The notes below the pieces were generated by a model that had not been told where the DNA came from, did no database searches, and saw only the letters and a program-made list of their open reading frames with translations. This document shows positions 11,054 to 43,384 of a stretch of DNA of 64,000 bases, in pieces; within the stretch, counting starts at the first letter, position 1; every line of letters begins with the position of its first letter. The stretch is from assembly GCA_023920165.1 (NCBI GenBank), contig CP089274.1, positions 5,208,001 to 5,272,000 of the forward strand. Reading direction: 5' to 3'. A program made the position numbers and the translations under genes. The stretch comes from Curvularia clavata (taxonomy: Eukaryota).

Positions 11054-11190
11054 GATCAGCCCAAAGGTTGAGCCTTTCGACCCTGCAGTGGGTTGTGAAT
11101 GTTTTTGCCGGACTTATTGCGCGGTGAGGACCTGGGCAACTTTGGCGGTGTAAGTTCGGAGGATCTGATTGGCCGGTCACCGCTCAAGTA

Positions 11191-13014
11191 AGCTCGGACA
11201 TATACTTTCCGCGCACATAGGGTTCCCGCGCACATAGGGTTCCCGCGCACATAGGGTTCCCGCGCACCCACACAAAGCAGCTATACTGGATACAGTCGCG
11301 ATTTTCTCAACAACAACAATTATATTTGCCACTCATTACACATAGAGCTAAGAGTAAGCGCTGCCGCTTCTGCTGCCGCTTTTTCAGCTGCTTTTTCAGT
11401 TGAAATAGTTGCCCGTTGTGCCTGTAGAGCTGCTGCTCGGTCAATAGCAGCCTTAATACTCTCAACGTTACTAAAGCGTTCATTTGGGTTAACTTGAACT
11501 CGTTTTCTTACGCGAGTAATCTTATAGCTATCTAGTTGATATCTAAGCTGTTGATTTTGAGCTTCAAGTTGGGCAGCTCTAGTATTTGCCTCCGCAATAG
11601 CCTTACCTGCTTTGCTAAGCACCAGCCGGGTGCTTCGTGAGAGAGATTCTGACAGCAGTAGCTGCTGTTGGGTCTTATGTAGAGCCTATGAGCTCCGAGG
11701 TGTATTAAAGACTTGTTCTGGTAGTTCTTGGGCCTGACGGGCGGCTGGCGGAGTAACTGGTCGGCCAGTTATTTGAGACGAGAGTAGCACAATGTCTGGG
11801 TTGTATGGACAGAGCCCAGCAGCCCTCCAGCCAGCTCTAATAACACGCTCTGATAGTCCTTCTGCTCTAGCTTTATTGTATGATACAACAAAGCGCTCTT
11901 TTTTTACTGGAGCTGCGTCGTCAAGCGCTGAGAGAGCTTGAATCTGATTACGATAGCGAGACTTGAGTACAGAGAAGGGAGCTAAGTCTAGCGGCTGCAG
12001 CAAGTGAGAGGCATGCGCAGGAAGATATAGTAGCTGGATCCTATTCACCTTACAAAGCCACATGAAGTCGATAGGCGTGTGGGAGCCATGGCCGTCAAGA
12101 AGGAGTAGTCGATATCCACCACTTGTAGGCGCAGTATTTGGTATAAAAATCCGCTGTAGCCACTCAGATCCAATCAAATTCGACGTCCACCCATTCTCTG
12201 ACGTAGTGTATAGCCAATCTGGTGTACTCGTAGCTGGAAACCACGTAGTCTGAAGATGCTTGCCCTTAAAGACAACTAGACACTGGAGCTTGGCGCCTGT
12301 GGCGGAGACGGTCTCAATAATTGACACCCACTCGCGATCCTCTGGAGACTTGACGTAAGCTTTCTTCTTTGAAGAGCTTGCAAGCACTCTAGCGTTCGTA
12401 CATACCCCTAGCGCGACTCCAGTCTCGTCCATATTCCATATATCTTCGTACTGTATGCCTAGCTCTATACGCGTACGTTCAAATAGCTCAAGAAAGGCTT
12501 TAACAGTCTCATAGTTGGCACCAGTAGTACGCGCGCTCTCGATCTTTCGGCCGACTATTGATGCGACGCGTGGGTTACGTGCAATGAAATGGGGTACCCA
12601 AAGCTGTCCAAGTGGCTCGTAGTCACTATTCATATGCAGAATTCGAGTGGCCATTTCTCGTACGCGTAGATGGGACGGGGGTTGTGCGCGTGAGTCCTCA
12701 TCAAGTATCCAATCTACTAGAAAGGTCTCTTGTTCTGGCGTTAATCGCTGTTGTTGTTGATGAGCTGTTGCGTGTGGTTGTTGACCTTGCTGCCGACCGC
12801 GTATTGTAGATTCAGAGATGCCGTACCACTTAGCAGCCTTACGCCGGCTTGTAAAAATACCTGAATTAAGATCTGCGATAGCATTTTGTATAGCAAGCTC
12901 TTTGGGATCCATTTTAGTCTCGTGGGGTTGATGTTACAAGCGTTGCAAGTGAAGCAACGCGTTGTGGTGGGGTGCGCGGGAACCCTATGTGCGCGGAAAG
13001 TATATGTCCGAGCT
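11191..13014 (-). mobile_element. Fot1/pogo-family (Tc1-mariner superfamily) DNA transposon, element A
   Basis: TA at 11189-90 and 13015-16; 43-bp perfect TIR AGCTCGGACATATACTTTCCGCGCACATAGGGTTCCCGCGCAC; HTH plus DDE transposase inside. Confidence 0.96.
11320..12912 (-). pseudogene. Transposase of element A, interrupted by one nonsense codon
   Basis: DETG/DGHGSH/QPLD motifs; TAG at 11686-11688 where copy D has CAG; reading frame continues to 11320. Confidence 0.88.
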
Positions 13015-13836
13015 TACATCCATCCCATAGACAAATGAAACCAAGCGTTACCGACTTACTGACAGGTTTCGACGCAGAGATACAGCACTATATTTATATA
13101 AACCTACAGTAAGATAGTGGCGCTCAGACATCTCCTTATATTAGAAACAAAATTCGATATATTGTTGTGGTTGAGCTGCGGTTGAGTTGTACGACAGTGA
13201 GTTTCGTATCAGCGTTTGGTTATATCTGCTTAGGGAATGCACCTCTCTTAGGTTCGCATTATGAACGCTGGACAATGCTAGAAATCAGTTGCCATGTGCC
13301 TTTCAAGTCATACGTGCAATTTTTCTCACACCTTATTTTCAGCGTGCGTAAGAGTGTAGTGGGGAGTCCACCGTGACTTGGTACCGGAAGCCCACTCACC
13401 GCGACAAATTAACGCGGAAGTTCTGCTCTAATTAATCCATGCTTAAACAGTACGTACAGTTCATATGCCTGGAAAAAGTAACGCAAGTGACAAGCAGGAT
13501 ATGGCACAGGGCGATTCTTCTCAAGATGGCACAACTCTAAAGCCTCAAAGTTCTACTCAGCCATGCAGACGTTGACCAACGTGACATAATAGAAACATCA
13601 TTTTAAATTGACAAAACCCAGAAGTATTCAGGATGAACGCTGCCATCATCTAAGACTCAAAAGCAATTCGGGGAGTGATGACGTCAAGGTGACTCGTAAC
13701 ACCACCACACTCGTCATGGTCAAACAACGTAGGGATGTCAGCTGTGAATTGAGACTTCTGTTCCCCAAACCCAAGAAACTTCGTTGTACAAACTATTTGC
13801 CTCTCCTGAATTTTGAAGCCCTCCACAAACCTGCAA

Positions 13837-14446
13837 ATGTCATCTGCAAAATCACCAGCAGCGAATCCCAGCATAACACCTGATCCTGCCCAGGACGGTT
13901 CAACGATCCGCAAAGCATTCGTGCTTGAAGCCGTTGCAAATCTCTTCACCATACCTTTGATAACAAATACGCGCTTCACACTCTCGCTCCTCCTCAACAA
14001 TCCATCGCGAGACATCACTCCTGCTTCAGTCTTATTCGCACGTCTGTTTGGCGGCTTGATTGTTGGTGGTCTCACGTCGGCACTATTTGCTGGTGCGACA
14101 AACACCAGGAATGGTATTGAGTCCAGAAGGCCAACTTATCTTTTGTTAGGTCTAGGAGAAGCAGTTCTGATTCCCATCTTGGCATTGGAGTTGATACAGG
14201 GAGCGCCAGGCGCGGCGCTGAGTAGAACAGTTGCGGGCGTGAGCATTGGGTTTTTAGTACCACCGCTGTTATGGAGGATGTATGTGCTATTTGTCAGACC
14301 GGACCTCTTGGGGAGGTATGTGGAGGAGGGAACGGGCGGTCGTGGGGCAAGTAGGAGAGACGGATGTAAGTATTTGGTTTCTGCATACAATTATGACGAC
14401 AAGCTAATCTGACTTAGATGGCTCTATCAATATGCGTGAGGACTAA
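13837..14446 (+). CDS. Hypothetical multi-pass membrane protein; exons 13837-14365, 14418-14446
   Basis: About four hydrophobic segments; GTAAGT..GCTAAT..TAG intron near the 3' end. Confidence 0.7.
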
Positions 14447-15033
14447 GATGATGGGTGCTAACATGGAACTCAGCTGCGCAGTAGTGCCCCTGCTCGTTGT
14501 GCTTCGAAGTTAGCTGACAGTAGTGTTACAACGGACAATATCCTGTTGTTAGCCACATTCACCATCAAGCAATCGCCCTCTACGTATGTTGCTCCATATT
14601 TCGGTCGGTATTTGATACCCACCTAATGCCCACGCTAGGAGCCCACCCGACCACGGAGGAAACGATTGCTTCATGGTCAGATACAAGATATTGCAGTGTT
14701 TATACACGATAAGATAGGATAGACAGTATAGGAGACTTGGTGACCTGGCAATTAGCATACTGCCGTTCCCCATCGAGGAGGCAAACAAGTCAAGCGGTAT
14801 CATGACCTGCACTGATCACGCGATCCTTCCCCATAACCAGTCTATACCAGCTTAGAGTGCCGATAGGCATCAATCATGTGGTTGGCTAAGCTGCGCATAA
14901 TGAATTCTTGTTAGAATTTACGTGTTGGTTCCTAGCTTCTGAATCTAGTACTTTTCCATGCTATCTTAGCCAAGGTCGAATATCCATAAACGCCGCGCTG
15001 AAATCACATGCAATGTCTCTGTTGGCACCATTA

Positions 15034-15916
15034 TTAGTCCGCGAAGCCTCCCCATTCCGCCTCTTCGTCTTCCTCTTCAGGCTCGCTCTCGGCTTCGCTT
15101 TCTTGCCCTCTCCAATTCCTCAATCTCTCGTCAGCGAGACACTCTTTCGCCGCGTTCCTCAATGGTTTCAACACCCCGTCCTTTGCCATCTTCTCAATTG
15201 GCTGCATCAAAGTCTCCAAGGTCTCCTTGTTTTCATCTTTCTCCCATTCCTCACCCTCCACCTTCTCCAACTCGTCAACCCACACATCCATGACATGATA
15301 TCTGAGTCCATTCGAAATTCTCATATTCCGACATTCTATGGGTGTCTCTTCCATGATGCTATTCCATTGTTCCAACAAGTCCTTCTTCCACTTGTTTCGG
15401 CTTAGGAACGCAAAAGATGCATTGACGTATTGACGGATCAAGTACAGATATTTGTCGAGTCTCAGCGCTTCAATGTGACTCCACTCGCGAGACATGGTAA
15501 GGAAGAAGGCGCGGACAAAGGGTAGAACGACGGGTGTGCGAAGGATAGAGACGATCGATGCGAAATCGCGGGAAAGGCGCTGCTGGAGAGCGGGTTTGTC
15601 TTGCATCCACAGGCCTGCAAATGCTGTTAGTCTCTTCATCTGGCTGGTCGCGAAGAGACCAATGGTCCGTAACTAGAATGCGCTTTAATGCAATACTTAC
15701 AGTAAAACAGTCCCTTCCATAGCTTCAACAAATCCAGTTCTGTAATCTCTGACTGTGCGCCGAGATACGCTTTCAAGGAATCAAGTGCCTGGTCGCGAAC
15801 TTTCTTGTCTGTCGCAAACGTCAATCTCTTGTTACTGGAGCCCTAATATACCATGTTTCCATACCGCTCGAGGCAAGGTTTCTTATAAACGGGTTGTTTT
15901 GCGCGTCCGAAGCCAT
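15034..15916 (-). CDS. RRP1: Nucleolar pre-rRNA processing protein Rrp1/Nop52; exons 15916-15865, 15808-15701, 15614-15034
   Basis: [53 protein letters not shown]; two canonical introns. Confidence 0.92.
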
Positions 15917-16536: not shown

Positions 16537-18382
16537 ACGTCAAAGATCAGTAAGCTGCGCGGATCAGTAAGCTGCGCACCCCACCCAACCTAATCCAACT
16601 CTCTTCACCATTGATCCACAACAACGCAGTAAAATTAGATAAAATTTAACGGATATAATTTATTGTCTAGATTTACACGAAGTGCGAGTGTGACCTTGAA
16701 TATGGCAGTTTGTGCACGTCGGCGGCGCGCGCTGGCGTCGCTGACTGCCCTCACTCTGCTCTGCCTCTACAACTACTCTTTCTGCCTCTAAAGCGAGCTG
16801 CCGAGCCTGCTGCACCTGGAGCACTCCGCCAGAAGCGATATATTGACGCGGCTGATTCTGCTTTTGTCGCTGGCGCTGATTTTCTTCACGTAGCTTTTTG
16901 TTCTCCTCCGCGAGTATTACTGCTGATTGCATTGCAAGCTGAGCGCTCTTAGCAAGCTGGCGGATAGCAATGCTTGTTGGACTCTCTGGCTGCCGCCGCA
17001 GTCGCTCTTGGAGATAGCGCACCTGCTGCTGAAGCTGCTCTACTGTATGTGGTGTCTCTGTCTGCGCCGCTGCCTGCGCTGTAACGTTGTCATCTACAGT
17101 TGTCTGTGGTGGAGACGGCGTCCGGACGACAGTTAGCGACGACAGAACACGATCTGGACAAGAAGGGACAAGACCTGTCGCCCGAAAGCCTGATTGGATA
17201 TTCTGCTGCGTAAATATAGTCGGCCGGATCCGTGTATAGGCTGTAAGGAAGTCGATCTTGTCGATATGGTAGACGCCTTGGCGGGCGAGCTCCTCAATCT
17301 GACGTCCGTACGCGCGCTTAAGAGGGGAGTAGCAGCTTACGTCTAGAGGCTGGAGAAGATGGGAGGTATGTGGCGGCATACAGAGAGTAATAATCTTGTT
17401 ATCGGCGCAGTACTGGTCGAACTCTGGCGTAGCGTGGCTGCTATGGCCGTCGAGGATAATAAGCCGATAGACTCCAGCTGTTCGAGCCGCTGTATGCTGA
17501 TTGAAGTGCTTCACCCACTCTAAGCCTAGCTCATCTGTCGTCCAGCCGTTGTCTGACACGCCAATAGTCCAATCGAGTGGGAGGTCGCGGTACCAGCTGC
17601 TCTGGTGGACTTTACCAGACAAGATTATGAACGGTGGAAGACACCAGCCAGACGCGTTGACGCACTCGATAGCTGTTACCCACTCGCGATTGCCTGGCTG
17701 TATTACAACTGCGCGGCCGACTCTATCAGAGCTAGTCACGACTTTTGATGTTGCAGCGACGCCCATTGCGAATCCAGTCTCGTCAAAGTTGTAGATATCT
17801 TGGTCAAGAACGCCATACGTCTGTCGCGTCTCCTCTACTAGTTTAAACCACGCTGTAATCGCGATAGGATCCTCAGAACTAGCGCGCTGGCTATTAAGCT
17901 TTCTAGTCCACTTTGTCTGGAGCTCTGGCTGGCCTTGGATAAAGCGCGACACCCATTTCTTGCCTACAGGTAGTGGAGGTGGATCTTGGCCACGCGCGGC
18001 GAGTAGAGCGTCTGCCATTCGTCGCACGTCGATGATATGGGGTGGAAAACCACGCCGGTCAAGGTCTAAGATCCACTGTACGAGAGAATGCTCTTCAATA
18101 GACGATAGCTTACAATTAGCAGGTCGCACCTCAGATCGTGGCTGGGTACCACTGACGCGCGTCTGGAGTGTGGATCTTGGTACATCAAAGGCCATTGCAA
18201 GAGCGCGGAGAGACTGTTTTGGATTATTACGATAGGACGCGATAGCAAGACTTATTCTGCCTTCACGAGAAGTCTGTATAGAGCGTTGTTGTCGCGGCAT
18301 TATGGTAGTTGTAGAGAGAGTCGGATCAGGTGGGGTGGGGTGGCCAGCTTGCTGATCTGGCCAGCTTGCTGATCCTTGACGT
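16537..18382 (-). mobile_element. Fot1/pogo-family DNA transposon, element B (intact ORF, imperfect TIRs)
   Basis: TA at 16535-36 and 18383-84; ends begin ACGTCAARGATCAG, about 50 bp with 8 mismatches. Confidence 0.95.
16660..18300 (-). CDS. Fot1-like transposase, 546 aa (HTH, CENP-B-type HTH, DDE, C-terminal CCHC knuckle)
   Basis: NFDETGF, LDGHSSH, LQPLDV, CTNCHIQGHTRTSC; no stops. Confidence 0.94.
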   Translation of the reverse strand: MPRQQRSIQTSREGRISLAIASYRNNPKQSLRALAMAFDVPRSTLQTRVSGTQPRSEVRPANCKLSSIEEHSLVQWILDLDRRGFPPHIIDVRRMADALLAARGQDPPPLPVGKKWVSRFIQGQPELQTKWTRKLNSQRASSEDPIAITAWFKLVEETRQTYGVLDQDIYNFDETGFAMGVAATSKVVTSSDRVGRAVVIQPGNREWVTAIECVNASGWCLPPFIILSGKVHQSSWYRDLPLDWTIGVSDNGWTTDELGLEWVKHFNQHTAARTAGVYRLIILDGHSSHATPEFDQYCADNKIITLCMPPHTSHLLQPLDVSCYSPLKRAYGRQIEELARQGVYHIDKIDFLTAYTRIRPTIFTQQNIQSGFRATGLVPSCPDRVLSSLTVVRTPSPPQTTVDDNVTAQAAAQTETPHTVEQLQQQVRYLQERLRRQPESPTSIAIRQLAKSAQLAMQSAVILAEENKKLREENQRQRQKQNQPRQYIASGGVLQVQQARQLALEAERVVVEAEQSEGSQRRQRAPPTCTNCHIQGHTRTSCKSRQ

Positions 18383-18414
18383 TAGATGTTTTAGCTTAGT
18401 AAGCGGCCAAGATA

Positions 18415-20256
18415 ACGTGCGCCACCAGTGAGCTGGCCACACCAGTGAGCTGGCCGCCCCACCAAACCTGACCCAACTCTCTCCACAACCACCACAATGC
18501 CGCGACAACCACGCGCTCAATCAACTTCTCGTAAAGACAGAACTAGTCTTGCTGCAGCTTCTTATCATAATAATCCAAATCAATCTATCCACGCTCTCGC
18601 AAAAGCGTACGATGTGCTAAAATCGACTCTTCAGACACGCCTCCGTGGTGTCCAGCCGCGATCAGAGACAGCCTCTGCTAAACGAAAGCTATCGCCTATT
18701 GAAGAGCAGTCTCTCGTACAGTGGATCCTAAAGCTAGATAAACGAGGCTTTCCGCCTCATATTATCGACGTGCGACGAATGGTAGACGTTCTGCTTGCCG
18801 CGCGTGGCCAAGATCCACCTCTACAGCCAGTTGGTAAGAACTGGGTATCGCGCTTTATCCAGAGCTAGCCTGAGCTTCAGATAAAGTGGAGTAGAAGACT
18901 CAATAGCTAGCGCGCCTGCTGTGAGGATCCTAGAGTGATTACAGCGTGGTTTAAGCTAGTAGAGGAGATACGCTAGACGTACGGCGTCCTTGATTAAGAT
19001 ATCTATAACTTTGACGAGACTGGATTTGCGATGGGCGTCGCTGTATCGTCAAAGGTAGTCACAAGCTCTGAAAGAGTTAGACGGCTAGCTGTTGTAGAGC
19101 TAGGCAATCGCGAGTGGGTTATAGCAATCGAGTGCGTTAACGCGTCTGGTTGGTTTCTACCACCCTTGGTGATCCTGTCTGGTAAAGTCCATCAGAATAT
19201 CTGGTATCGCGATCTCCCACTTGACTGGACTGTCGGCGTCTCAGACAACGGCTGGACGATAGATGAGCTCGGTGTAGAGTGGGTGAAGCACTTCAACCAA
19301 CATATAGCTGCTCGTACAGCTGGAGACTATCGGCTTCTTATCGTAGACGGCTATGGTAGCCATGCTACGCCAGAGTTCGACCAATACTGCGCTGAGAACA
19401 AGATTATTACCCTCTGCATGCCACCCCATACCTTCTATCTTCTCCAGCCTCTGGACGTAGGCTGCTACTCTCCTCTTAAGCGCGCGTATGGACGTGAGGT
19501 TGATGAGCTCGCCCGTCAAGGCGTCTACTATATTGACAAGATAGACTTCCTTACAGCCTATACGCAGATCCGACCAACAATATTTACGCAGCAGAATATT
19601 CAGGCAGGCTTCTAGGCGACAGGTCTTATTCCTTTTCGTCCAGATCGTGTTCTCTCGTTACTAACTATTATCCGGACGCCATCTCCACCACAGATAATTG
19701 TAGATAGCGGGACCACTAATAGCGCCTAGCAAGCAGAGACGCCCCATACAGTAGCTCAGCTTCAGCAGCAAGCAAAATGTCTTCAAGACAGGCTTCATCG
19801 GGAATCTCAGAGCCCAACAAGCCAACTTCTCCGTCAAGTTATTAAAGGCTGTCAGATTGCAATGCAATCAGCAACAATACTTGCTGAAGAAAATAAGAAG
19901 CTACGTCAAGGTAGTGAGCGGCTAAGACAGAAGCAAGATCAGCGGCGTCAATATATTGCTTCTAGTGGAGTTCTTCGGGTGCAGCAGGCTCAGCAGCTTG
20001 CTGCAGAGATAGAAAGGATGGTCGCGGAGGTTGGGCAGAGTGAGGGCAGTCAGCGACGTCAACGCGCGCCGCCAACGTGCACGAAGTGCCACGTTCAAGG
20101 ACACACTCGGACTACCTGCAAAACTAGATAGTGAATGTTACTTCCATATTCTATCTAATTTCATCACGTTGTTGTGGATCTATTGTGTGTCGCGGCAGGT
20201 CAGGTTTGGTGGGGCGGCCAGCTCACTGGTGTGGCCAGCTCACTGGTGGCGCACGT
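18415..20256 (+). mobile_element. Fot1/pogo-family DNA transposon, element C (RIP-damaged)
   Basis: TA at 18413-14 and 20257-58; 59-bp perfect TIR ACGTGCGCCACCAGTGAGCTGGCCACACCAGTGAGCTGGCCGCCCCACCAAACCTGACC. Confidence 0.95.
18497..20131 (+). pseudogene. Transposase pseudogene of element C
   Basis: Collinear with transposase B but with in-frame TAG/TAA near 18866, 18908, 18973, 18994, 19613 and 19727, several at Gln positions of B; DGH changed to DGY. Confidence 0.92.
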
Positions 20257-23099: not shown

Positions 23100-26000
23100 T
23101 TATTCCCGTAGATCCCTTCCAAAGTTGAGCGCCAGGGGCGTCAATTGTCCATCTTCAATGGCACTCTCATCTTCATAGAAGCCGCTCTCGCTCCATGGCT
23201 CAAGGTCTGCATCCTGGTCATATGCCTGCTTCCTCATGAGAGGTGGTGTGCGAGGCTGCTTTCCAAGAACTGGGAAGCCGATTTCAGTCGAGGCGTGCGA
23301 GCTGATAGAGTTCGAACGCTCGGCTTGTGGGCGTTGAGAACTGGATGGAACATCGGGCGTGCGGCGCATGTTGGAGGTTGGTGGTGTCATAAGACCAGAG
23401 AGGAAGGATTGCGCGGAGTGAGACTGGGGACGGGATGGCGTCTGGTTGCGAGGTGCGTTTGCTGGCTTTCCAGCAAGGGCAGACGTAGCTTCTCCTCGGC
23501 CTTTGCGCCAGTTGCCAATAGCAGCAGCAAGCTGAACTGCTTTGGGTGATGCAAAGTTGGACAGCGTGCTGAGTGTCGGGAAGGATTGTTGTCCGCCGGA
23601 AATGAGGCGCTCCTTCTCCGACTGCTCCATCTGCAAGTTGGTGCGGATGCGAATAGCGGCATCACGAACAGTCTCGCGATCAAACGTTGGCTGAGCCAAG
23701 GCAGTAATGAGATCGTTCAGGTCGTCGACACGTACACCGAGCAATTCACGCAGCCAGTTGATCTCAGTTTCACGTTCCTTGAGCTTAGCTGGCGCCTCAG
23801 TATCAATCTCTTCGAGTTGCTGCTCGAGCGACTCGATGCGTCCCTCACGCTCCTGTAGTTGCTCTTGTAGAACAGCAATGGACTCGCGCAGTGCTTGAGT
23901 CGAGATCTTTTCGGAGCTGTTCAGAGCGAAGGACGTAGTAGAAGTTGGTGACTTGGAAGCTGCAGCAACTGCAGCGTTGGCGGCTTCCTTTGCGACCTGT
24001 AGCTTCTCTTCCAGCAGCGCGATCTTGTCCTTGAAATGGTCGAGCTTGGAGTCTGCCAAAGCAAGCTTGTCGTTGTGGAAGGCCTCGGCACGCTCCTTGT
24101 CTTCACGGATGAATTCAAGAGCACGTGCATGCTCTTGCTTGACGTGCTCGAGTTGACGCTCAAATACACGCTGCTGCTCCTGCAGACTGTGCCTCTGGTT
24201 TTCAATTGCTTGCTGAACCGCCTGCTTCCTTGCGTCAGATGCTGCCTCTAGGTCAAGCTCATGCTTCTCTTTGGCAGTGTCGGCGTCGAGGCGAACCTGA
24301 TCCAATTCGGCGCGAACACGGTTGATCTCGCTCTCAAGCTCATGGCGAACAATGTTGACTTGGTTGTTGGCGGCGTCGAGGTCAGCCTCCATGAGCACGC
24401 GGGTGCGGCGGATCTCAACGTGCGCAGCGTCCCTCGCTTCACGCATATCGCGCTCGTAGCGCTCAGCGTTCCTCTGGTGCTCCATAGCCTCTTTCCTAAG
24501 CTGCTGAACAGCCTCCTCGAGCCTAGCGTTATGCTTCTGCGTCTGTTCGAGGTGGATCCTGAGTTTCATGCCCTCACGCTCCTGAGTCTCCAGGCGTTCG
24601 AGTTCTCTCTCCAGGCGCTCACGTGTGCGACCCTCAGCCTCAATACGCGCGCTGAGAACTTCATATTTGGTTGCCGACTCTTCCTCCTTCTTCTGCCATT
24701 GAGCGCGTTCGGCTGCAACCTGCTGGGAGGCCGCAACCATATCTTGCTGGAGCTTCTCAAACTTGGCACGCATCGATTCCCGGACACGAATGGCCTCCTC
24801 GGCTTGGAAACGTGACTCTCCGATAGCCTTGCGCAGCTGCTCTGCCTCCTCGTGAGCTTGCTGAAGGTCGCCACGCCATTTGTTGGCCGAGATGCGGTGC
24901 TCTTCCAACGTGAAGGTCAGAGCCTCATTTTCAGCAGTAACAGAATCCAGCTTCTTCTTGAGATCCTCCTCAGAACTTTCCAAAGCGATGTTTGAAAGCT
25001 TGAGCCGTTCATTTTCGCTGTCGAGTGTAGACAGTCTGTCGCGGAATACATCTTCGTTGCTCTTGAGAGTCTCGAGGCTATGACGAAGATCATCGCGCTC
25101 TTCCGTCAGACTGTGAATCTTCCTCTCGTCATCACGAGCAGCCTGCTGGAGAAGCGTAAGCTCTTCTTCAGTAACCTTGAGAAGGCGAGCAGAGTCGACT
25201 TCACGGGCTTCAAGGGCCTTGCGTGCTTCAGCCTCGGTGTCAAAGCGCAGAGTAGCTTCCTTGAGCATTGCCTCAAGGTCGGCAATCCGTGCATCCCTCT
25301 CCTGAACGGCTTGAGACTCCTCCCGCTTGGCAACCTCCATGTTCTGGCGCTTGAAGGCATCGTCGATAAGCTCGCGAACGTCCTCAGCCTGAAGGTGATG
25401 ACTCGTAGTCTGTGCGATAGAAGCTTTGAGACTACCGATGATCTGGTACAGCTCGGACATGTCAAGAGATGGCTGTGGAATATCGACAGGCGCCTCCAAA
25501 GTAGCCATGGGTTTCTGAGATGCTAGTGCTTCGGCGACGATGGAGCGGATCATGTCCGGCTGAACAGGATCCGCAGTTGGCGCCGGCGGAGGTGGGGTGT
25601 GCGAAGAAGCAATTGCTTCTGCGACAATAGCCTTGAGGTCATCAGGCCAGATCTGCTCAGGAACTGGTGCTGGCAATGGCTGGGGCGCGTGCGTCTCGAA
25701 CGCCTCCATAACAATCGATCTGATGTCATCAGTCTTTACGGGCTGAGCATGAGACGCGAGCATATCAGCAAGAATGGATCGCACGTCTTCGGCCTTGAGA
25801 GACTCAGTGGTGTGCTCGGGTACTGATTTGCTGGAAGCAATAGCATCTTGAACAATTTCGCGAATCTGATCGACCGGAATAGGCTCAACGTGTTGGACGG
25901 GTGGCTGGTGCTGCGTAATGACATCAGTGACAATGTCACGGATCTTCTCTGGAATGATTGGTTCTGGTACTGGTACCGGCACCGGCAGCGACGTGATCTG

Positions 26001-29000
26001 TGACTGGTGAACCTCAAGCGCGTCCATGACAATGGACCTGATCTTCTCCAGCTTCTTGTCCTTGCCTCGAGATCTGTTGCGATAGTCTGCCTCGGTACCG
26101 ACCTCGTCGTCCTCATCATCTGCGTCGCTGTCAAGACGTTCATTCGTGGACATGCTACGTCGGCCGCGTCGTGAACGCTGCGACATAGTCACCAGCGCTT
26201 GCTGAATACCTTGCAGGTTTTGCTCCAGCGGGCTCAGACGGTCTTGCAGAAGACGGCCCATAAGCTCATCGACATGTTTGTCGAAGAAGCCACTGCGCAT
26301 CTGGACCTTGTTTTCGTCCTCGCTGAGAAGGCCATCGTCCCAGTCGCTCAGGTGTCCATCGTCAACGTTGATCACATCACGCACAGGAGACTGGTAAGGA
26401 ATTGCAGCCCTCTCGCTGTCAAACGGATCCTGCACCGAAGTTGCGGAGCCAGGAATGTTGACGCCACGACCAGGGAAGAATCCTCGGCGAGGGCTGGGGC
26501 TAGGAGCATCACTGCGCATCTTGAAGTTTGGTTGCAAGTCGTTGCGCTCAAACACATGCGGCGTCCTCTGAGGAGAGGACTGGTCCCAAGACGTCTCGTC
26601 ACGTTCAACACCAAAGTCTGAGCCCTCTCCGTCCATGTGCTTCATGACTGCATCAATGTCGTTGAACGAAGCATCACCGATGTTATCGAAATCAACACTC
26701 TCGCTCTCGGGGTAACGTGTTTGTCTACCAGACTCCATGGCCGTCTTGAATGAACCGTCGTCACTGGGTCGGTAAGTCGTTGCTGGGCTCCTGCTAGCAA
26801 TTCTTGGAGGCGACAGCTGAGCCTTCTCAGGATCTTCAACTTGAGATGGCTTCGTAACGTGGAAGCCGAAATCGTAGCCAGCATGAAGCTGTGGCTTGAA
26901 CTCGAACGGTTTGGCGGTGGCGGAGAGACTGCTCTTGTGGCCGTGTTTCTTGGTCGTTGGCTCGGGATCCTCAGTGGTTGGCGTGGGTATATCACTGACA
27001 TGAGGCGTATCATCCTCCGCGCCTTCTTCGCTTCCGGGAGCAGGGGAGATAGGCTCAAACGGCCTTGTGTCCTGTTGCTGTGGCAATGGTGAGGGACTCT
27101 TTGATTTGGTCTTGGTCCGTTTGCCATCTGGCGAACGGTTCTCCTTGTCCTTGGCAAAGTCTTTCTCTGCAATCTTAGATTCAACCACAACAGCGTTGGG
27201 CTCCTTGACTTCAGCCAGAGGCTGCGACGGCAGAATGGGCTGGAGCGCAAACTTGGGCACATCATCACCATCAGGACGGTTGCGTCGTACACGCTTCTCA
27301 CGACCATCAGGTTGAATGGGCCGGCCAGACTCGTCCTCGCGGTCTTCCTGCTCTTTGGGCGTTTGCTGACGTGTGTTATCAGGTCGTACAATGGGGACAG
27401 CCTTGGAGCGCGTAGCCGGCTTGATGATGTCATTGGCAGAGATATTAACATCTCCAAAGATCTTTGAAGAGAAGCTCGTTGGAGCAGGGGCAGGCTTGTT
27501 GATATTGAACGTCGACACTCCAGGACTGAAGACAGGCGCATCGGGCTTGAACGCGGGTGCATCTGGCTTGAAAGCAGGAGCCGAGACATTGAAGCTTGAT
27601 GGCCCGTCGATGCTGCTCTTGTTAGTCTGGTGAGCGGCTTGTTCTGTAGCGGGCTTGACAGCAGGTGCAAAGCTGAAGCCAGATGAGAATGATCCAGGAC
27701 TGAAGGATGCTGTAGGGTTGAACTTGAACTCCTTGGCTTCGACATTGAGCTTCGAAATGGACGAGCGCGAAGCATGTTTGCTATGCGCAGCTGGCGCAGG
27801 GTTGCTAAAGGCAAATTTGTTGTCTTTCCAGGAACTGCTGACTTGCGAGGGCGCCTTGGTATGCTGTACAGCGCCCTGGGTGGCGTTGTGAACCTCTCCG
27901 TCTTCCAAACTGGGGTTGGTGTTCTCGGAGAGATTCGTGCGCGCACCGTCACGGTCAGAAGCTGGGGTCTGTTGCGCTGGGAACGAGAACGATACGGGGT
28001 TCTGTGACTGCGCAAGGGAGTGAGTCCTGCTGTGTGGTTGAGGCTGATGAAGGATCGGTCGAGAATCCTCCCACTTGGGCTTAGCCACGGCATGTGCAGG
28101 CTTGAATGGCATGTTGGTCTCTGGCTCCGTACTGAAATCTCCGCCTTCAGCAAACTGCTTGTCAATAGCCTGCTCCAGATGATACTCCTCGTTAGCAGCC
28201 TCACGTTCGAGGTTCTCGCTGATATTATGGCGATGACCACGAGGAGTTGGTACCGCGATTTCTGTCTGGGTTTGAGTGGCATGCTTCATGGCTGGTACTT
28301 CATCTTCCTCGTCCTCGTCCTCAGGTACTTCAGCAAGCGTAGAAGAGGGCCGCATACCAATGGCTTGCTGCTGCTGTTGCTGGAGAAGCTGAGCCTGAAG
28401 CTGCTGCTGCTGCAACTGCATGTGTAGCTGGAGATCATTCCTTTGTGTTGGCGTGATAGGCATCTGCTGACCCATGCCGAATGGCGAACGGGGCGAGATG
28501 AGTTCGGCAAGGTCAGGACGGCTGAGAGCAAGAGCAGGCGATGCGGTGCGACCATCTTGAGGATTGAAGTAACCACTCGGTGACCATGTTCCAGAAGGCG
28601 AGTAGCCGTGCTGAGCAAAGTTTGCCGGTGATCCAAAAGTCGAATGGCGATGCATGTGCATACTTGTGCGCGGGTTTGCAAAAGCTGCAGGAGAAGCAAT
28701 CGACTGTCGAGACATGTGGCCTGGAGATGGTCCATATGGGAAGCCAATCGAGGCGATGCTACCCGGTCTGGCCATGCGGATGCTACCAGCAGACGAGGTA
28801 GGCAGAGGTGGAGAGAAAACCGTTCCTGGATGCTGCTGCGAAGATGTCTGGCGTGAGAGAGGTAGAGCAATGTCCTCTTCGCCACCTAGGCTAACACCAA
28901 GTGCGGCAAGCTTTGCCTCGAGCAAAGAGTTCTGGTAATCTTTCCATTCCGACTCCTTTGACACACGGACTCTGAACTTCGAACCGGAATTGGTACGTTC

Positions 29001-30317
29001 TGCTTGCATATCAGCCTCTGCTGGCCAGATGGCTTTGTTATGTGTCTCTTGGCCTCCAGTGCTGAAGCCACGAATATCATAACCTTGCTGCTCGAGTTTC
29101 CTGAGCTTTTCGTTGACAGCTTCTTGGCTCATTGGCTTGGGGGGATACCCAGGATTACCCCTAGGGATATCTCGCGGTATGGAGATGATACAACCCTTGC
29201 CTTTGACCATGACCTTTTTACGCATTCTCGGATGTGCAGGTGCAGCGCTTGGGGGAGCAAGGAAGGAGCTTGCTTGGGGATTAGGTCTGCTCATCGATGA
29301 CACTTGACTTGACGGCTTTGCAGCATCGCCATTTCCGGACTTTGTTGGGGTCTCGTTGGCTGGTTTTGTTGCCTTTGAAGGAGTCGGGATTGGTGTCTTC
29401 TCAGAGGACGCGCTGTTGCCATTTGTCTGGGGTGGGCCTGAACCAGAGGTTTGTCTTTGGGGAACCGCCGGCTCGGCGTCCGCGTACTTTGAGGCCATCA
29501 TCTTACCCAGTGCTTCCTTCTGGTCCTTACTAAAGTGACGCCAGAAGTCCTGCTGGTTTAGCGTCTTATTGGTATTTCTGTCTCTGTGTCCTCGCTTCGG
29601 TGGGGCAGCAAGGGACACTTCTTGATCTTCTGCAGATCCTTCAGTGTCACTGTCGTTGCTCCGCCAATCGTTTGTCTCGCGATTCCAACGCTGCTCAAGG
29701 AATCGTTGAACCCACTCTGCGGATGTGGGGTTTGGGTCGGACGGTCGTGGGGTGCTGCCAGAAGCCCGTTCTTCTCTTGACAGAAAATCTAGATTGGGCA
29801 ACCGAGATCGAATTAAGTGTTCAAGCGTAAAGCGGTTAGGCGATACGTTGCGGTCTAAAGAAGGAATAAGATGCTCGAGATTGAAGCGATTCGGCGAGTC
29901 TGCTTCAAGATCTAGTCGCGAGGGAAGCAAATGTCCAAGTCCAAACTGGAGACCAGATGGCTCCTCGTCAAAGTCGTCACTGTCGAGATTGGTCGAGACT
30001 TGGCGGCCAAGGTTAAAGGATGGAGGGGGGTGTCGGTACGGACTGCCCCAGCTTGCCGTATAGTACGAGGTATCGGTTCGCTCGCGCCTCGCAGCAGTAG
30101 AGGGCGTGCGCGGTTGGTTTCCAAGTACGGAGAAGGAGGGAAGTAGAGGCAGCTCTGGGCTTGAATGCCCCAGCGTACGAGACGGGGATGGGGCAGTCCA
30201 AGTCGGCGAGACTACTTCGCGCTCCTCCGATGGCGACGTTGCTTCGCCAAGATACTGAGGAGCAGGTGGAGGAGATGAGGGCGGCAGCGAGGGGGAGTTG
30301 GACCGTCTAGCTTGCAT
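23100..30317 (-). CDS. Large protein (2405 aa): disordered N-terminal half with PAM2-like motifs, C-terminal myosin-tail-like coiled coil
   Basis: 7.2-kb uninterrupted ORF; long E/K/R/L/A heptad region; no motor domain seen. Confidence 0.85.
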   Translation of the reverse strand: MQARRSNSPSLPPSSPPPAPQYLGEATSPSEEREVVSPTWTAPSPSRTLGHSSPELPLLPSFSVLGNQPRTPSTAARRERTDTSYYTASWGSPYRHPPPSFNLGRQVSTNLDSDDFDEEPSGLQFGLGHLLPSRLDLEADSPNRFNLEHLIPSLDRNVSPNRFTLEHLIRSRLPNLDFLSREERASGSTPRPSDPNPTSAEWVQRFLEQRWNRETNDWRSNDSDTEGSAEDQEVSLAAPPKRGHRDRNTNKTLNQQDFWRHFSKDQKEALGKMMASKYADAEPAVPQRQTSGSGPPQTNGNSASSEKTPIPTPSKATKPANETPTKSGNGDAAKPSSQVSSMSRPNPQASSFLAPPSAAPAHPRMRKKVMVKGKGCIISIPRDIPRGNPGYPPKPMSQEAVNEKLRKLEQQGYDIRGFSTGGQETHNKAIWPAEADMQAERTNSGSKFRVRVSKESEWKDYQNSLLEAKLAALGVSLGGEEDIALPLSRQTSSQQHPGTVFSPPLPTSSAGSIRMARPGSIASIGFPYGPSPGHMSRQSIASPAAFANPRTSMHMHRHSTFGSPANFAQHGYSPSGTWSPSGYFNPQDGRTASPALALSRPDLAELISPRSPFGMGQQMPITPTQRNDLQLHMQLQQQQLQAQLLQQQQQQAIGMRPSSTLAEVPEDEDEEDEVPAMKHATQTQTEIAVPTPRGHRHNISENLEREAANEEYHLEQAIDKQFAEGGDFSTEPETNMPFKPAHAVAKPKWEDSRPILHQPQPHSRTHSLAQSQNPVSFSFPAQQTPASDRDGARTNLSENTNPSLEDGEVHNATQGAVQHTKAPSQVSSSWKDNKFAFSNPAPAAHSKHASRSSISKLNVEAKEFKFNPTASFSPGSFSSGFSFAPAVKPATEQAAHQTNKSSIDGPSSFNVSAPAFKPDAPAFKPDAPVFSPGVSTFNINKPAPAPTSFSSKIFGDVNISANDIIKPATRSKAVPIVRPDNTRQQTPKEQEDREDESGRPIQPDGREKRVRRNRPDGDDVPKFALQPILPSQPLAEVKEPNAVVVESKIAEKDFAKDKENRSPDGKRTKTKSKSPSPLPQQQDTRPFEPISPAPGSEEGAEDDTPHVSDIPTPTTEDPEPTTKKHGHKSSLSATAKPFEFKPQLHAGYDFGFHVTKPSQVEDPEKAQLSPPRIASRSPATTYRPSDDGSFKTAMESGRQTRYPESESVDFDNIGDASFNDIDAVMKHMDGEGSDFGVERDETSWDQSSPQRTPHVFERNDLQPNFKMRSDAPSPSPRRGFFPGRGVNIPGSATSVQDPFDSERAAIPYQSPVRDVINVDDGHLSDWDDGLLSEDENKVQMRSGFFDKHVDELMGRLLQDRLSPLEQNLQGIQQALVTMSQRSRRGRRSMSTNERLDSDADDEDDEVGTEADYRNRSRGKDKKLEKIRSIVMDALEVHQSQITSLPVPVPVPEPIIPEKIRDIVTDVITQHQPPVQHVEPIPVDQIREIVQDAIASSKSVPEHTTESLKAEDVRSILADMLASHAQPVKTDDIRSIVMEAFETHAPQPLPAPVPEQIWPDDLKAIVAEAIASSHTPPPPAPTADPVQPDMIRSIVAEALASQKPMATLEAPVDIPQPSLDMSELYQIIGSLKASIAQTTSHHLQAEDVRELIDDAFKRQNMEVAKREESQAVQERDARIADLEAMLKEATLRFDTEAEARKALEAREVDSARLLKVTEEELTLLQQAARDDERKIHSLTEERDDLRHSLETLKSNEDVFRDRLSTLDSENERLKLSNIALESSEEDLKKKLDSVTAENEALTFTLEEHRISANKWRGDLQQAHEEAEQLRKAIGESRFQAEEAIRVRESMRAKFEKLQQDMVAASQQVAAERAQWQKKEEESATKYEVLSARIEAEGRTRERLERELERLETQEREGMKLRIHLEQTQKHNARLEEAVQQLRKEAMEHQRNAERYERDMREARDAAHVEIRRTRVLMEADLDAANNQVNIVRHELESEINRVRAELDQVRLDADTAKEKHELDLEAASDARKQAVQQAIENQRHSLQEQQRVFERQLEHVKQEHARALEFIREDKERAEAFHNDKLALADSKLDHFKDKIALLEEKLQVAKEAANAAVAAASKSPTSTTSFALNSSEKISTQALRESIAVLQEQLQEREGRIESLEQQLEEIDTEAPAKLKERETEINWLRELLGVRVDDLNDLITALAQPTFDRETVRDAAIRIRTNLQMEQSEKERLISGGQQSFPTLSTLSNFASPKAVQLAAAIGNWRKGRGEATSALAGKPANAPRNQTPSRPQSHSAQSFLSGLMTPPTSNMRRTPDVPSSSQRPQAERSNSISSHASTEIGFPVLGKQPRTPPLMRKQAYDQDADLEPWSESGFYEDESAIEDGQLTPLALNFGRDLRE

Positions 30318-39300: not shown

Positions 39301-39743
39301 CCCTTCTTGACTTTGTCTGATGTCTTTTCAACGGGCTCGACAGACTTGTCGACGGAAGTAGAGGCCTGAGACTTGTTGTCCCAGGTAGTGGACTCGGATG
39401 CGGTATTTGGAACCGAGGAAACATCGTCATCCTTGGTGACAGTTGACGAGGACGAGGCGCCCAGATCTGGCGAGGATACATTTGAAGCATCTACAGGCTG
39501 TGAAGACTTGGTTATGTCGGAAGCAGGCTGCTCTGCGCGCACCTCACGGACTGCTGCGGGCTGCTCGGAACGTGACTCTGCCTCGACGTCTTCAGCCCAG
39601 TTGGCTGGTGAGGCATGAGTGTCTGGGACAGGGGCGCTGCTTGCATCCTTGGATGGGGTCGCGGAGCCGGACGTCGGCTTGCTCGCGGTGGTGGGCGTGG
39701 AAATGCCTTTTGCGGCTTGCGCATATGAAAAGGTGGAAGCCAT
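36383..39743 (-). CDS. La-related RNA-binding protein (LARP1/Sro9-like) with La motif and C-terminal DM15-like region; exons 39743-37882, 37832-37080, 36908-36383
   Basis: [27 protein letters not shown] (La motif, after splicing), RGG boxes, LYQFWSHFLVRNFNQSMYDEFRYLALED (DM15-like); both introns in phase. Confidence 0.88.
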
Positions 39744-40086
39744 TGCGAAATTTGTGTCTGTGTCTCGGCTAAAGTCGAATTGCTAAAGGCGAGGGTGAGC
39801 GCTCAGAATCCCAGGTGGGAGCGCTGCAGCGATCTGACCAGCAGGTGGAGGTGCTGGTATGTCCGGAGAGGTATGTCTTGACCTCCCCGCACGCAAGCCT
39901 TTTTTTCGCAGCTACCAAGATTCGGGTCGGCGATGAAATGAGGGTGGCGCGTAGTAACCCTGCGGCGGCAGAGGACTATATGGGGCCGTGGGCGTTGGTC
40001 CGTAGCCGAGGCGATCACACACGCAGTGGGAAAGTGAATGTGCTTCTACGCACGACCTGTGAAGACCGGGGTTGCTGTTGTGCGTG

Positions 40087-40469
40087 CTGAAAGAATTGGC
40101 GTTAGCGATATTTTTTTCTGGAATGGAAATCAGGCAAGATGACAGTAATCGAAGTGTGAATAAGAAATGTTGAATGGAAGACGCCCAAGGCAGTCATGCG
40201 CTGAGAGAGCGGGTGTGGCGGGTATGGGTGGTGGTAGGTCTGGGAGCGCAGGGTAGGTCGGACTCAAGACAGCTTGGGCGGTAGCTGGTGAGTATACAAG
40301 AGGAAGAGTGAGCAGCATCCGAGCGGCTACTGGAGAGTGGCCAGAGGCACATGGCGGAAAGGTACAGCGAAAAAAAAAACATTGCGCGGGGTTGCCAAAC
40401 AGGCTCCGGGCGCGGAAGAGGAAGGTAGCAAGCATGTAGTGGCATGCTGCTCGTATGAGCACAACTAAC
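40087..40469 (-). other. Predicted 5'-UTR intron of the LARP1-like gene
   Basis: Minus strand AAG|GTTAGT donor and GCTAAC..TTCTTTCAG acceptor. Confidence 0.6.
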
Positions 40470-41594
40470 CTTTGGCAAGCAGTCTCCGGTGACTGTGGGA
40501 GTGATTGGGGGCGGGAGGTCGAGTCGAGCCGATGAGGGGCTGCGTCGAGTCGAGGTGGGAGAAGGAGAGATCGGGAGGGCGGGCGGTGGTAGAAGTAGAG
40601 AATGAGGGTGGGGAGTGGCAGACGAGGTCAGGTCCAAGGTCGGCAGGCAGGGACTCGTCCAGGCACCACCACAAGAGAGAAGTCGACGGCACGGGCGGGC
40701 TGAGGCGGCGTCTTTGGCGTCGTGTGCAGGTTGTCGAGGCAGACCAGGCGCCGGGAGACAAAATTGACAGTCGTGTGTGCGGGCGGTGCAAGCGCAGGTG
40801 GGAAACAAGAGGGTCACTGTGAAGCGCGAATTTTTCTTTAGTCAACTTGGGTGCTCTACCTAAAAGAAGCCGACAGCCAGCCCAGCCCACACACACAGAT
40901 TCGCTCACACTTGCTCACGCTACCTCTCGGCGCATTCGCCCGCGCCCTTGGCCCAGCCAGGCCCATAAAGCCAGCCTGCGCGCTCATTCATTGCGTTACT
41001 GCGCTGCGCTGCCATGCGCTGCGTGCTTGCAATTTCGGCCACGGGAGGTTGGACGCGCCCTCTGCACGCCAATGACGTCTCGCGAGCGCCTCGACCCCTC
41101 ACCCTCATCCTCACCCTCATCGGCCGTGGTACAAGCAGAAGCATCATCACCACGGCCAGCTATGCAATAACATGTGCCTGCTTCGTGGCCTGTCGACGCC
41201 TTCCTGCCGCCGTGCTTTGCTGCCCTCCTGCCAATTCTCGCCGCCTGCCCGACACGGCGTCGGCATGGCCCGTTGCCTGAGGCCCCAATTGGCTTCCATC
41301 TCGGGCTTCCTCGTGTGCAAGCCATAATTAGCGGCACCGCAAGCGGGCCCCATCCCGCAATCCTTGTGCCATGCGGAAAAACGGGATTATGTATTAAAGG
41401 TATTGCCGAAGCACCGCCACCGTATTGCCTGCTTGGGGTGGTACCTCGAAGCAATTAGTATTAGACATACGTACGACATACCTCCGGCCATGCGCTTGCG
41501 TGGCTGTCAGTTGCCTAGTATATGCCTAACCATTCATCCATCATACACGCACGCGCTGGTACCGCATCGCTGCCTCGGTCGCGATAAGCTGATA

Positions 41595-43384
41595 AGCTCG
41601 GCCATATAGTGTTCGGCCACATATAGTGGTCGGCCACCTTGGCCAGCCCACAACACAATTTAGATTCGCGATTTTCTCAACAACAACAATTACATTTGCC
41701 ACTCATTACACATAGAGCTAAGAGTAAGCGCAGCCGCTTCTGCTGCTGCTTTTTCAGCTTCTTTTTCAGCTGAAACAGTTGCCCGTTGTGCCTGTAGAGC
41801 TGCTGCTTGGTCAATAGCAGCCTTAATACTCTCAACGTTACTAAAGCGTTCATTTGGGTTAACTTGAACTCGTTTTCTTACGCGAGTAATCTTGTAGCTA
41901 TCTAGTTGATATCTAAGCTGTTGATTTTGAGCTTCAAGTTGGGCAGCTCTAGTATTTGCCTCCGCAATAGCCTTACCTGCTTTGCTAAGCACAAGCCGGG
42001 TGCTTCGTGAGAGAGATTCTGACAGTAGTAGCTGCTGTTGGGTCTTATGTAGAGCCTGTGAGCTCCGAGGGGTATTAAAGACTTGTTGTGGTAGTTCTTG
42101 GGCCTGACGGGCGGCTGGCGGAGTAACTGGTCGGCTAGTTATTTGAGACGAGAGCAGCACAATGTCCGGGTTGTATGGACAGAGCCCAGCAGCCCTCCAG
42201 CCAGCTCTAACAACACGCTCTGATAGTCCTTCTGCTCTAGCTTTATTGTATGATATAACAAAGCGCTCTTTCTTTACTGGTGCTGCGTCGTCAAGCGCTG
42301 AGAGAGCTTGAATCTGATTACGATAGCGAGACTTGAGTACAGAGAAGGGGGCTAGATCTAGCGGCTGCAGCAAGTGAGAGGCATGCGCAGGAAGATATAG
42401 TAGCTGGATCCTATTCACCTTACAGAGCCACATGAAGTCGATAGGCGTGTGGGAGCCATGGCCGTCAAGAAGGAGTAGTCGATATCCACCACTTGTAGGC
42501 GCAGTATTTGGTATAAAAATCCGCTGTAGCCACTCAGATCCAATCAAATTCGACGTCCACCCATTCTCTGACGTAGTGTATAGCCAATCTGGTGTACTAG
42601 TAGCTGGAAACCACGTAGTTTGAAGATGCTTGCCCTTGAAGATAACTAGGCACTGGAGCTTGGCGCCTGTGGCGGAGACGGTCTCAATAACTGACACCCA
42701 CTCGCGATCCTCTGGAGACTTGACGTAAGCTTTCTTCTTTGAAGAGCTTGCAAGCACCCTAGCGTTTGTACATACCCCTAGCGCTACTCCAGTCTCGTCC
42801 ATATTCCATATATCTTCATACTGTATGCCTAGCTCTATACGCGTACGCTCGAAGAGCTCAAGAAAAGCTTTCACAGTCTCGTAGTTGGCGCCAGTAGTAC
42901 GTGCGCTCTCGATCTTTCTGCCGACTATTGATGCGACGCGTGGGTTACGGGCGATAAAGTGAGATACCCATAGTTGCCCAAGTGGCTGGTAGTCGCCATT
43001 CATGTGTAGAATTCTAGTAGCCATTTCTCGGACACGTGGATGAGATGGCGGCTGTGCGCGTGAGTCTTCTTCGATTATCCACTCTACTAGAAAATGCTCT
43101 TGTTCGGGAGTCAATCGCTGCTGGTGTTGGTGAGCTGTCGCGTTGGGTTGTCGGCCTTGGAGACGTTCTTGAAGTGTGGATCGCGGAATACCATAGGCCT
43201 GAGCAGCCTTGCGCTGGCTAGTAAAAACACCAGAATTTAAATCTCTGATAGCAGATTGTATAGCTAGCTCACGGGGATCCATTTTGGATTCGTGGTGTTG
43301 AGAATACAGACGGAAGTCACGCGTTGTGGTGGGTGGCCGAGGTGGCCGACCACTACATGTGGCCGAACACTATATGGCCGAGCT
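41595..43384 (-). mobile_element. Fot1/pogo-family DNA transposon, element D (intact, potentially active)
   Basis: TA at 41593-94 and 43385-86; 51-bp TIR AGCTCGGCCATATAGTGTTCGGCCACATRTAGTGGTCGGCCACCTYGGCCA with 2 mismatches. Confidence 0.96.
41690..43282 (-). CDS. Pogo/Fot1-like transposase, 530 aa
   Basis: NMDETGV, LDGHGSH, LQPLDL; uninterrupted ORF. Confidence 0.94.
   Translation of the reverse strand: MDPRELAIQSAIRDLNSGVFTSQRKAAQAYGIPRSTLQERLQGRQPNATAHQHQQRLTPEQEHFLVEWIIEEDSRAQPPSHPRVREMATRILHMNGDYQPLGQLWVSHFIARNPRVASIVGRKIESARTTGANYETVKAFLELFERTRIELGIQYEDIWNMDETGVALGVCTNARVLASSSKKKAYVKSPEDREWVSVIETVSATGAKLQCLVIFKGKHLQTTWFPATSTPDWLYTTSENGWTSNLIGSEWLQRIFIPNTAPTSGGYRLLLLDGHGSHTPIDFMWLCKVNRIQLLYLPAHASHLLQPLDLAPFSVLKSRYRNQIQALSALDDAAPVKKERFVISYNKARAEGLSERVVRAGWRAAGLCPYNPDIVLLSSQITSRPVTPPAARQAQELPQQVFNTPRSSQALHKTQQQLLLSESLSRSTRLVLSKAGKAIAEANTRAAQLEAQNQQLRYQLDSYKITRVRKRVQVNPNERFSNVESIKAAIDQAAALQAQRATVSAEKEAEKAAAEAAALTLSSMCNEWQM

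Follow-up and report, generated by a model that had tools for sequence, protein, structure and literature searches.

Introduction

Fot and Fot-like pogo elements share a DD35D spacing (Gao et al. 2020, PMC7386202). In the relevant passages of that study, members of the Fot family possess an HTH_psq/CENP-B-type and an HTH_Tnp_Tc5 helix-turn-helix (HTH) domain followed by a DDE_1 domain, are bounded by terminal inverted repeats (TIRs) of 40-60 bp, measure ~1.8 kb with a single open reading frame (ORF), and reside in Dothideomycete hosts. Most of them are flanked by TAA duplications, those of the FotC and FotD clades by TA, and the passages concerned describe neither mosaic elements nor TIR/HTH specificity classes. 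Two elements of this kind, termed A and D, are carried by a 64,000-nt stretch of Curvularia clavata DNA (GCA_023920165.1, contig CP089274.1, positions 5,208,001 to 5,272,000 of the forward strand; hereafter "the window", in whose own numbering all positions are given). They resemble the Fot family in every feature listed, including the TA duplication of FotC and FotD; unlike that of most Fot elements, the empty site of A is TA and not TAA. The comparison of A and D, which appear to share a catalytic core but not the parts that recognise the transposon ends, is the subject of this analysis.

Exchange between transposon copies is a known process. Fischer, Wienholds and Plasterk are said to have described, in 2003, sequence exchange between dispersed Tc1 copies of C. 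elegans, which were near-identical and had the same ends. The likeness to A and D is that non-allelic copies of Tc1/mariner-type elements exchange sequence by gene conversion or gap repair; A and D differ, however, in their TIR repeats and recognition helix. The present case is thus a variant of the known process, with an exchange between sub-lineages distinguished by these two features.

Other systems provide models for the ends and for the mechanism. In the Lemi1/Emigrant system of Arabidopsis, a pogo-type protein has been shown experimentally to bind the TIR and, cooperatively, subterminal repeated motifs (PMC1636448). It therefore offers a functional model for the direct repeats of A and D, although a plant element and its partner, a miniature inverted-repeat transposable element, are concerned there, whereas A and D are known from sequence. 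Tc1 elements of the Sleeping Beauty-like inverted repeat/direct repeat type likewise have two or more transposase-binding direct repeats per inverted repeat, as predicted for A and D; these are spread over ~230 bp (PMC5224488), while the repeats of the pogo elements A and D are packed into 43-77 bp. Variant cut-and-paste elements are commonly explained by ectopic recombination or by gap repair involving a switch of template, as has been invoked in the Galileo/P superfamily (PMC4168063), but this is another superfamily, and defective copies were at issue rather than a coding-competent chimera. No report of a pogo/Fot chimera with an exchanged core and retained TIRs and HTH was found in the open-access literature searched.

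Architecture of Elements A and D

Element A (11191-13014, minus strand) and element D (41595-43384, minus strand) are complete Fot/pogo-type transposons of 1824 and 1790 bp, respectively. Each is bounded by AGCTCGG...CCGAGCT, and TA stands on either side (11189-11190 and 13015-13016 for A; 41593-41594 and 43385-43386 for D). By blastn, they are the sole copies of their family in the window, with 91.6% identity over 1676 nt, and their TIRs extend over 43 nt in A (100% identical) and 61 nt in D (93%). Besides the reading of the sequence, the limits of A are based on this perfect TIR and on a precise empty site in sequencing run X3 (see below), and those of D on its TIRs and intact ORF of 530 codons (41690-43282, minus strand), encoding 530 residues. 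Element A has otherwise the same ORF, interrupted at codon 409 by an in-frame TAG (11686-11688, minus strand; CAG in D), which leaves 408 residues. At this place (11688), contigs of all four runs examined have the CAG form, and the stop appears to be private to the copy in the window, or rare.

The transposase harbors the Pfam domains HTH_psq (PF05225, residues 8-44), HTH_Tnp_Tc5 (PF03221, residues 58-113) and DDE_1 (PF03184, residues 193-362, E-value 7.9e-33). In an AlphaFold model with a mean predicted local distance difference test (pLDDT) score of 77, the N-terminal bipartite HTH is formed by two three-helix bundles, and the best Foldseek matches of the model are chains of the Mos1 transposase. 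A sequence search of the PDB with the N-terminal 115 residues returned chance-level matches only (E-values of at least 0.15). In an alignment of 60 sequences, no variation is seen at D162 and D273 and almost none at D309, and from this conservation they are the probable catalytic residues; 35 residues separate D273 from D309, hence DD35D. With a DDE_1 core, this spacing, a bipartite HTH, fold matches to Mos1, TIRs of 43 and 61 nt and a TA duplication, A and D belong to one family, the fungal Fot/pogo (DD35D) cut-and-paste transposons. Ascochyta, Boeremia, Didymella and Pyrenophora, together with many metagenome contigs, supply the top homologues of the transposase, and the DNA of the window is fungal.

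The A/D Mosaic

In the pairwise alignment of A and D, identity changes abruptly at two places, A 12579/12580 (D 42949/42950) and A 11296 (D 41666). The internal tract of A delimited in this way (11296-12579, minus strand) comprises the linker, the DDE_1 domain, the C-terminal coiled coil, the stop codon and 24 further nt; it differs from the homologous tract of D (41666-42949, minus strand) at 43 positions in 1284 bp, i.e. 96.7% identity. The first 333 nt of the ORF, in contrast, hold 78 differences and are, like the 5' untranslated region (UTR), ~77% identical. They encode the DNA-binding module (codons 1-111, HTH_psq and HTH_Tnp_Tc5), which is of A type at 12580-12912 (minus strand) and of D type at 42950-43282 (minus strand), the latter being 95% identical in amino acids to the retrieved protein P0002. 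At the other end, A and D diverge anew within the 3' TIR region, from 24 nt beyond the stop codon. Near-identity across the DDE domain and the C-terminus, and a far greater divergence of the first ~110 codons, had both been stated in an earlier reading of this DNA (the original prediction), and both hold.

The Nei-Gojobori method yields a synonymous divergence (dS) of 1.09 and a nonsynonymous divergence (dN) of 0.14 for codons 1-112 (dN/dS 0.13), compared with 0.109 and 0.012 for codons 113-530 (dN/dS 0.11). Since dN/dS is low in both parts and dS is ten-fold apart, purifying selection has acted on both, for very different time spans. Uniform synonymous divergence along the ORF, which the original prediction had named as evidence against itself, is not seen. 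The top single breakpoint falls at ORF nt 333, with a maximum chi-square of 150.3; in 1000 permutations, this statistic averages 5.1 and reaches 25.0 at most. A recombinational origin of the mosaic is strongly supported, and rate variation cannot explain it.

The 5' breakpoint corresponds to codon 111/112. Helices 34-41 and 105-112 are, in the AlphaFold model, the third helices of the two HTHs. Both ends of the tract lie at stretches where A and D are identical, one of 30 nt (the codons of NPRVASIV) and one of 27 nt that begins with the stop codon. Repeat-induced point mutation was considered as a source of the A/D core differences and rejected, as there is no CpA>TpA bias: 7 of the 20 A-derived transitions are found in such a context.

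Phylogeny of the N-Terminal Module and of the Core

Separate trees were computed for the N-terminal part (112 columns) and the core (418 columns). They include 30 of the 129 retrieved proteins, i.e. the closest full-length matches and the partial proteins nearest to the N-terminus of A, as well as A and D themselves, giving 32 rows, with an X in place of the stop of A. In the N-terminal tree, A belongs to a starred clade (99/94) with P0065, P0103 and P0121, while D pairs with P0002 (94/62). In the core tree, A pairs with D (100/99), and P0002 joins them (100/100). The approximately unbiased (AU) test rejects the grouping {A,D} on the N-terminal data (p 0.0004) and, on the core data, the A-type clade as defined on the N-terminal partition (p 3e-52). 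The two trees are therefore incongruent with strong support, in line with the original prediction. Furthermore, the N-terminus of A is 87% identical to that of P0121, and thus closer to it than to D.

Because the N-terminus of A groups with the A-type proteins and its core with D and P0002, A is most likely the recipient, a core from the D/P0002 lineage having entered an A-type element, although the case is not airtight. The recipient lineage is represented by partial proteins only (P0121, P0065 and P0103), and the donor lineage by D and P0002.

Terminal Repeats and Recognition Helix

The TIRs of A and D are built alike: the terminal heptamer is combined with at least two subterminal direct repeats of 17 nt, and the 5' side additionally has an inner CCCACCACAACGCG box. 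In A, the 5' TIR (12972-13014, minus strand) consists of AGCTCGG and two subterminal repeats with the core CCGCGCAC, and the 3' TIR region (11191-11267, minus strand) of the terminal heptamer and four subterminal repeats, one outer and three inner, with the core GCGCAC. In D, the 5' TIR (43325-43384, minus strand) contains AGCTCGG, two repeats with the core TCGGCCAC and a third, partial one (CTCGGCCAC); its 3' TIR (41595-41655, minus strand) has the same GGCCAC repeats. The difference resides in the central dinucleotide of the repeat core, which reads GGCC (GGCCAC) in D and most relatives, and GCGC (GCGCAC) in all six repeats of A. The 5' TIR of A is 81-82% identical, without gaps, to the GGCC-type TIRs of the relatives L009 and L001, so that the A-type TIR looks derived, with its central dinucleotide inverted in every repeat. 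The earlier statement that the TIRs of A and D differ beyond AGCTCGG is accordingly right for the repeat cores; the ends are not unrelated, however, as they share one architecture and are 74% identical when aligned with gaps.

The HTH difference quoted in the same earlier reading is present as well. Residues 34-41, the third helix of the first HTH (HTH1), are modelled with a pLDDT of ~90 and read RSTLQERL in D and ESTIRGRQ in A, differing at five of the eight positions. In relatives, TIR type goes with HTH type, again as foreseen. The gene models of P0121 and P0065 extend upstream through the TIRs, which can be recognised in the translations as being of the GCGCAC type, while the upstream in-frame translation of P0123 reads a GGCCA-type TIR. 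Helix and TIR could be scored together in 27 elements, comprising 25 loci besides A and D. R34 is present in 19 of them, and 18 of these were scored GGCC, one (L018) reading GGCCC; the exception is L036, with CGGCA. Three lineages are devoid of R34, namely A (E34) with GCGC, L017 (P34) with GC[T/G]C, and the L011 group (Q34) with GATC. Helix 3 of HTH1 may thus read the repeat core, a proposal to be taken as a hypothesis and not as a result. The helix form x-E-S/T-T-L/I-R is common in the wider family, being found in 14 of the 90 sequences tallied.

A separate observation concerns P0012, a Logan-derived protein of 530 residues. Its ~30 N-terminal residues are D-like and are followed by an A-type helix (AESTLRGR...GQQPH), and it pairs with P0013 in both trees. 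It may be a mosaic within HTH1, or else the product of a convergent helix switch.

Further Probable Recombinants among Relatives

Among 55 close protein pairs, A-D exhibits the most extreme contrast between N-terminus and core (24/112 vs 6/288 differences; Fisher test, 1e-9). The pairs P0008-P0011, P0045-P0088 and P0045-P0046 stand out too. A linear-fit screen of all protein pairs was abandoned for the Fisher test, because it was dominated by noise at low identity and left A-D outside the top 25.

At the nucleotide level, three contigs (L011, L025 and L027) resemble L022 over ORF nt 1-600 (92-98%) and L007 over nt 600-1400 (93-100%). All three retain the TIR (GATCAC repeats) and the helix of the L022 type, and the 3' UTR of L027 is again L022-like. 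L007 and L022, examined as a mosaic pair in their own right, proved to be uniformly ~80% identical, the real recombinant being the L011 group. L009 and L023 diverge from nt ~687. The breakpoints of these recombinants (ORF nt ~600, ~687 and ~1400) are not those of the HTH/DDE border. If the metagenome recombinants are real, they would repeat the pattern of A, with ends of one type and a middle of another, and with breakpoints inside the catalytic region.

The 5' end of L014 was also seen to deviate: an unrelated, GC-rich sequence stands in place of the outer 5' TIR, next to an intact inner repeat and ORF. Either the insertion is truncated or the contig is chimeric.

Occurrence in Public Sequencing Runs

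Part of the segment 11000-13200 is present in 19 of the 21 public runs listed, from 16 studies. Logan contigs of four of these runs (X1, X3, X11 and X12) were compared with the window; parts of A for which a long bridging contig is missing do not indicate absence. A contig of X1, perhaps the source sample, covers 12531-12999 with 2 differences. X12 stems from a different organism and dates from 2013. One of its contigs shows 5 differences over 12521-12999; a second matches 12403-12550 without any difference and is A-like at 11 of 11 sites that distinguish A from D there. X3 and X11 contain A-type N-terminal pieces with 0 differences. The A chimera is thus present in independent data (the X12 and X1 contigs, which bridge the junction by a short 46-56 nt), and is very probably no assembly artefact.

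A contig of X3 joins 11188 to 13015 with 2 shared letters and skips 1826 bp; the site is precisely empty and has one TA. Related organisms are therefore polymorphic for the insertion of A, and its target duplication is TA. As loose contig ends at 11296 and 12579 read D-type, both types coexist in the genomes of these runs. In X1, the A-type N-terminal contig has a depth of 273 and its flanks 90-103, which hints at ~3 copies, though contig depth is no copy number.

Origin of Element A

The explanation favoured here, with a probability of roughly three in four, is that D represents the common GGCCAC type without admixture, and that A is a GCGCAC-type recombinant. Each sub-lineage would carry its own pair, composed of a 17-nt subterminal direct repeat in both TIRs and an N-terminal bipartite HTH, with RSTLQERL as HTH1 helix 3 in the type of D. 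From a separate and older type, with the helix ESTIRGRQ, element A would have kept codons 1-111, the 5' UTR and the TIRs at both ends, whereas its internal 1284 bp, from the linker through the DDE domain to the C-terminal coiled coil, would have been overwritten from an element of the D/P0002 lineage. This may have come about by ectopic gene conversion or, after excision, by repair of the double-strand gap with a switch to a non-allelic copy as template; both the direction and the repair mechanism are what we infer. An internal tract would leave both ends and the adjacent HTH matched, so that the chimera would still be recognisable by a transposase of its own type, and only products whose HTH and both TIRs match would stay mobilisable.

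Several points weigh against this explanation. Within the tract, dS is uneven (0.38 for codons 113-160, 0.10 for 161-380 and 0.057 for 381-530), a pattern not accounted for by a single clean event; conversion may have occurred more than once. Codons 113-160 are modestly unlike the rest of the tract (10/147 vs 33/1113 differences), and the metagenome loci, at most 85% identical in this zone, are too distant to reveal their parentage. The direction leans mainly on a single relative, P0002, and the AU test rejects {A,D,P0002} on the N-terminal data only marginally (p 0.047). The cores of the A-type relatives scatter in the core tree and provide no clean parental reference, nor is there a pure A-type full-length element among the relatives collected. 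Covariation between helix position 34 and the repeat core amounts to 3 residue changes and 4 repeat changes, forming 2-3 independent pairs, and the sign test (p 0.5) is underpowered. The A copy in the window has a premature stop, and the contigs bridging its 5' breakpoint do not reach far into the core. Finally, the relatives from which recurrence is deduced are short-read metagenome contigs and possibly assembly chimeras, though the L011-type structure was assembled three times.

A selected cassette exchange is an unlikely alternative to the overwriting of an A-type core. In this view, a fixed border separates two functional modules, the catalytic core and the HTH+TIR unit, and swaps at this border create new families that do not mobilise one another. 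Such an exchange would account for a 5' breakpoint lying precisely where helix 3 of the second HTH ends, for a 3' breakpoint just inside the 3' TIR, and for the covariation of TIR and helix types. The A-type specificity is older than the swap, however, since an A-type HTH with GCGC TIRs already occurs in P0121, P0065 and P0103, whose cores lie elsewhere in the core tree. Moreover, the breakpoints of the other recombinants differ, and both A/D junctions are found at the 27- to 30-nt identical stretches, where any homology-driven tract would end; internal conversion tracts ending in homology are therefore favoured over a fixed cassette border. The original prediction had proposed such a swap between lineages with matched HTH and TIR pairs. 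Recombination between lineages is strongly supported, with a core that most likely moved from the D/P0002 lineage into an A-type element, but neither a fixed border nor the creation of a new specificity, and hence of new families, is borne out.

Improbable too, and ranked after the cassette exchange, is the reverse direction, D having obtained its core from an A-type element. The core clade of A and D has no direction by itself, and D is closer to P0002 in its N-terminus (95% identity) than in its core (88%). A higher identity of the N-terminus is nevertheless common in close pairs, such as P0003 and P0005, and P0002, with its D-type N-terminus, is sister to the A/D core, whereas the cores of A-type relatives are placed elsewhere, as the trees and the AU test of the core data indicate.

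The notion that A and D are recent sisters without recombination, the HTH and TIRs of one having diverged fast under selection for a new specificity, has very little to recommend it: protein differences are indeed densest in HTH1 (12 in the first 40 residues), but synonymous divergence is ten-fold higher there too, at an N-terminal dN/dS of 0.13, the N-terminus of A has nearer relatives than D, and the AU test rejects {A,D}. Equally far-fetched is an assembly or polishing artefact blending two repeat families, for although repeats are prone to consensus blending and X1 is perhaps the source sample, the contigs of X12, from another organism and another study, reproduce the A-type N-terminus with the A-specific variants of the junction zone, and zero-difference A-type N-terminal pieces occur in X3 and X11.

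Neighbouring Elements in the Window

Element B (16537-18382, minus strand) is a second pogo-type transposon, flanked by TA, with a 546-residue ORF (16660-18300) that is 35% identical to D in amino acids. Its ends are mismatched, both 5' repeats reading ...GCAAGCTGGCCA and both 3' repeats ...GTAAGCTGCGC[G/A], which is the same GGCC/GCGC alternation as between D and A; the helix of B is of the R..Q type (VPRSTLQTR). B may be a single-crossover chimera, or its transposase may tolerate both cores. Element C (18415-20256, plus strand) stands head-to-head with B at a distance of 32 nt and is 75% identical to it in amino acids over 537 residues. Its TIRs, of 54 nt, are perfect and contain GGCC repeats, and TA flanks the element.

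Between these elements and D, an open frame of 2405 codons (23100-30317, minus strand) has no Pfam match at E <= 1e-5. A frame of 546 codons on the same strand (26642-28282) overlaps it and has no Pfam match either.

Implications for the Pogo/Fot Family

Co-resident transposon sub-families are thought to persist by ignoring each other's ends, and there are few natural pairs in which the determinants stand isolated. Between A and D, which have the core in common, differences are almost confined to the HTH module and the TIR repeats, so that the two constitute a natural domain-swap experiment. The pair is suited to finding the residues and bases that set the end specificity of pogo/Fot elements, and is a possible starting point for orthogonal transposon tools. 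Internal gene conversion can carry a catalytic core between specificity classes, which complicates family trees of transposable elements derived from the DDE domain alone. A further-reaching proposal, doubtful at present, is that the end-recognition unit (TIR repeats and HTH1) and the core are separable and have been repeatedly re-assorted by internal conversion, and that a change of charge at two residues of HTH1 helix 3, from R34/Q38 to E34/R38, together with the inverted central dinucleotide of the repeat core (GGCC to GCGC), would suffice for orthogonality despite a 97%-identical enzyme. The alternation seen in element B would then reflect a general binary switch in fungal pogo elements.

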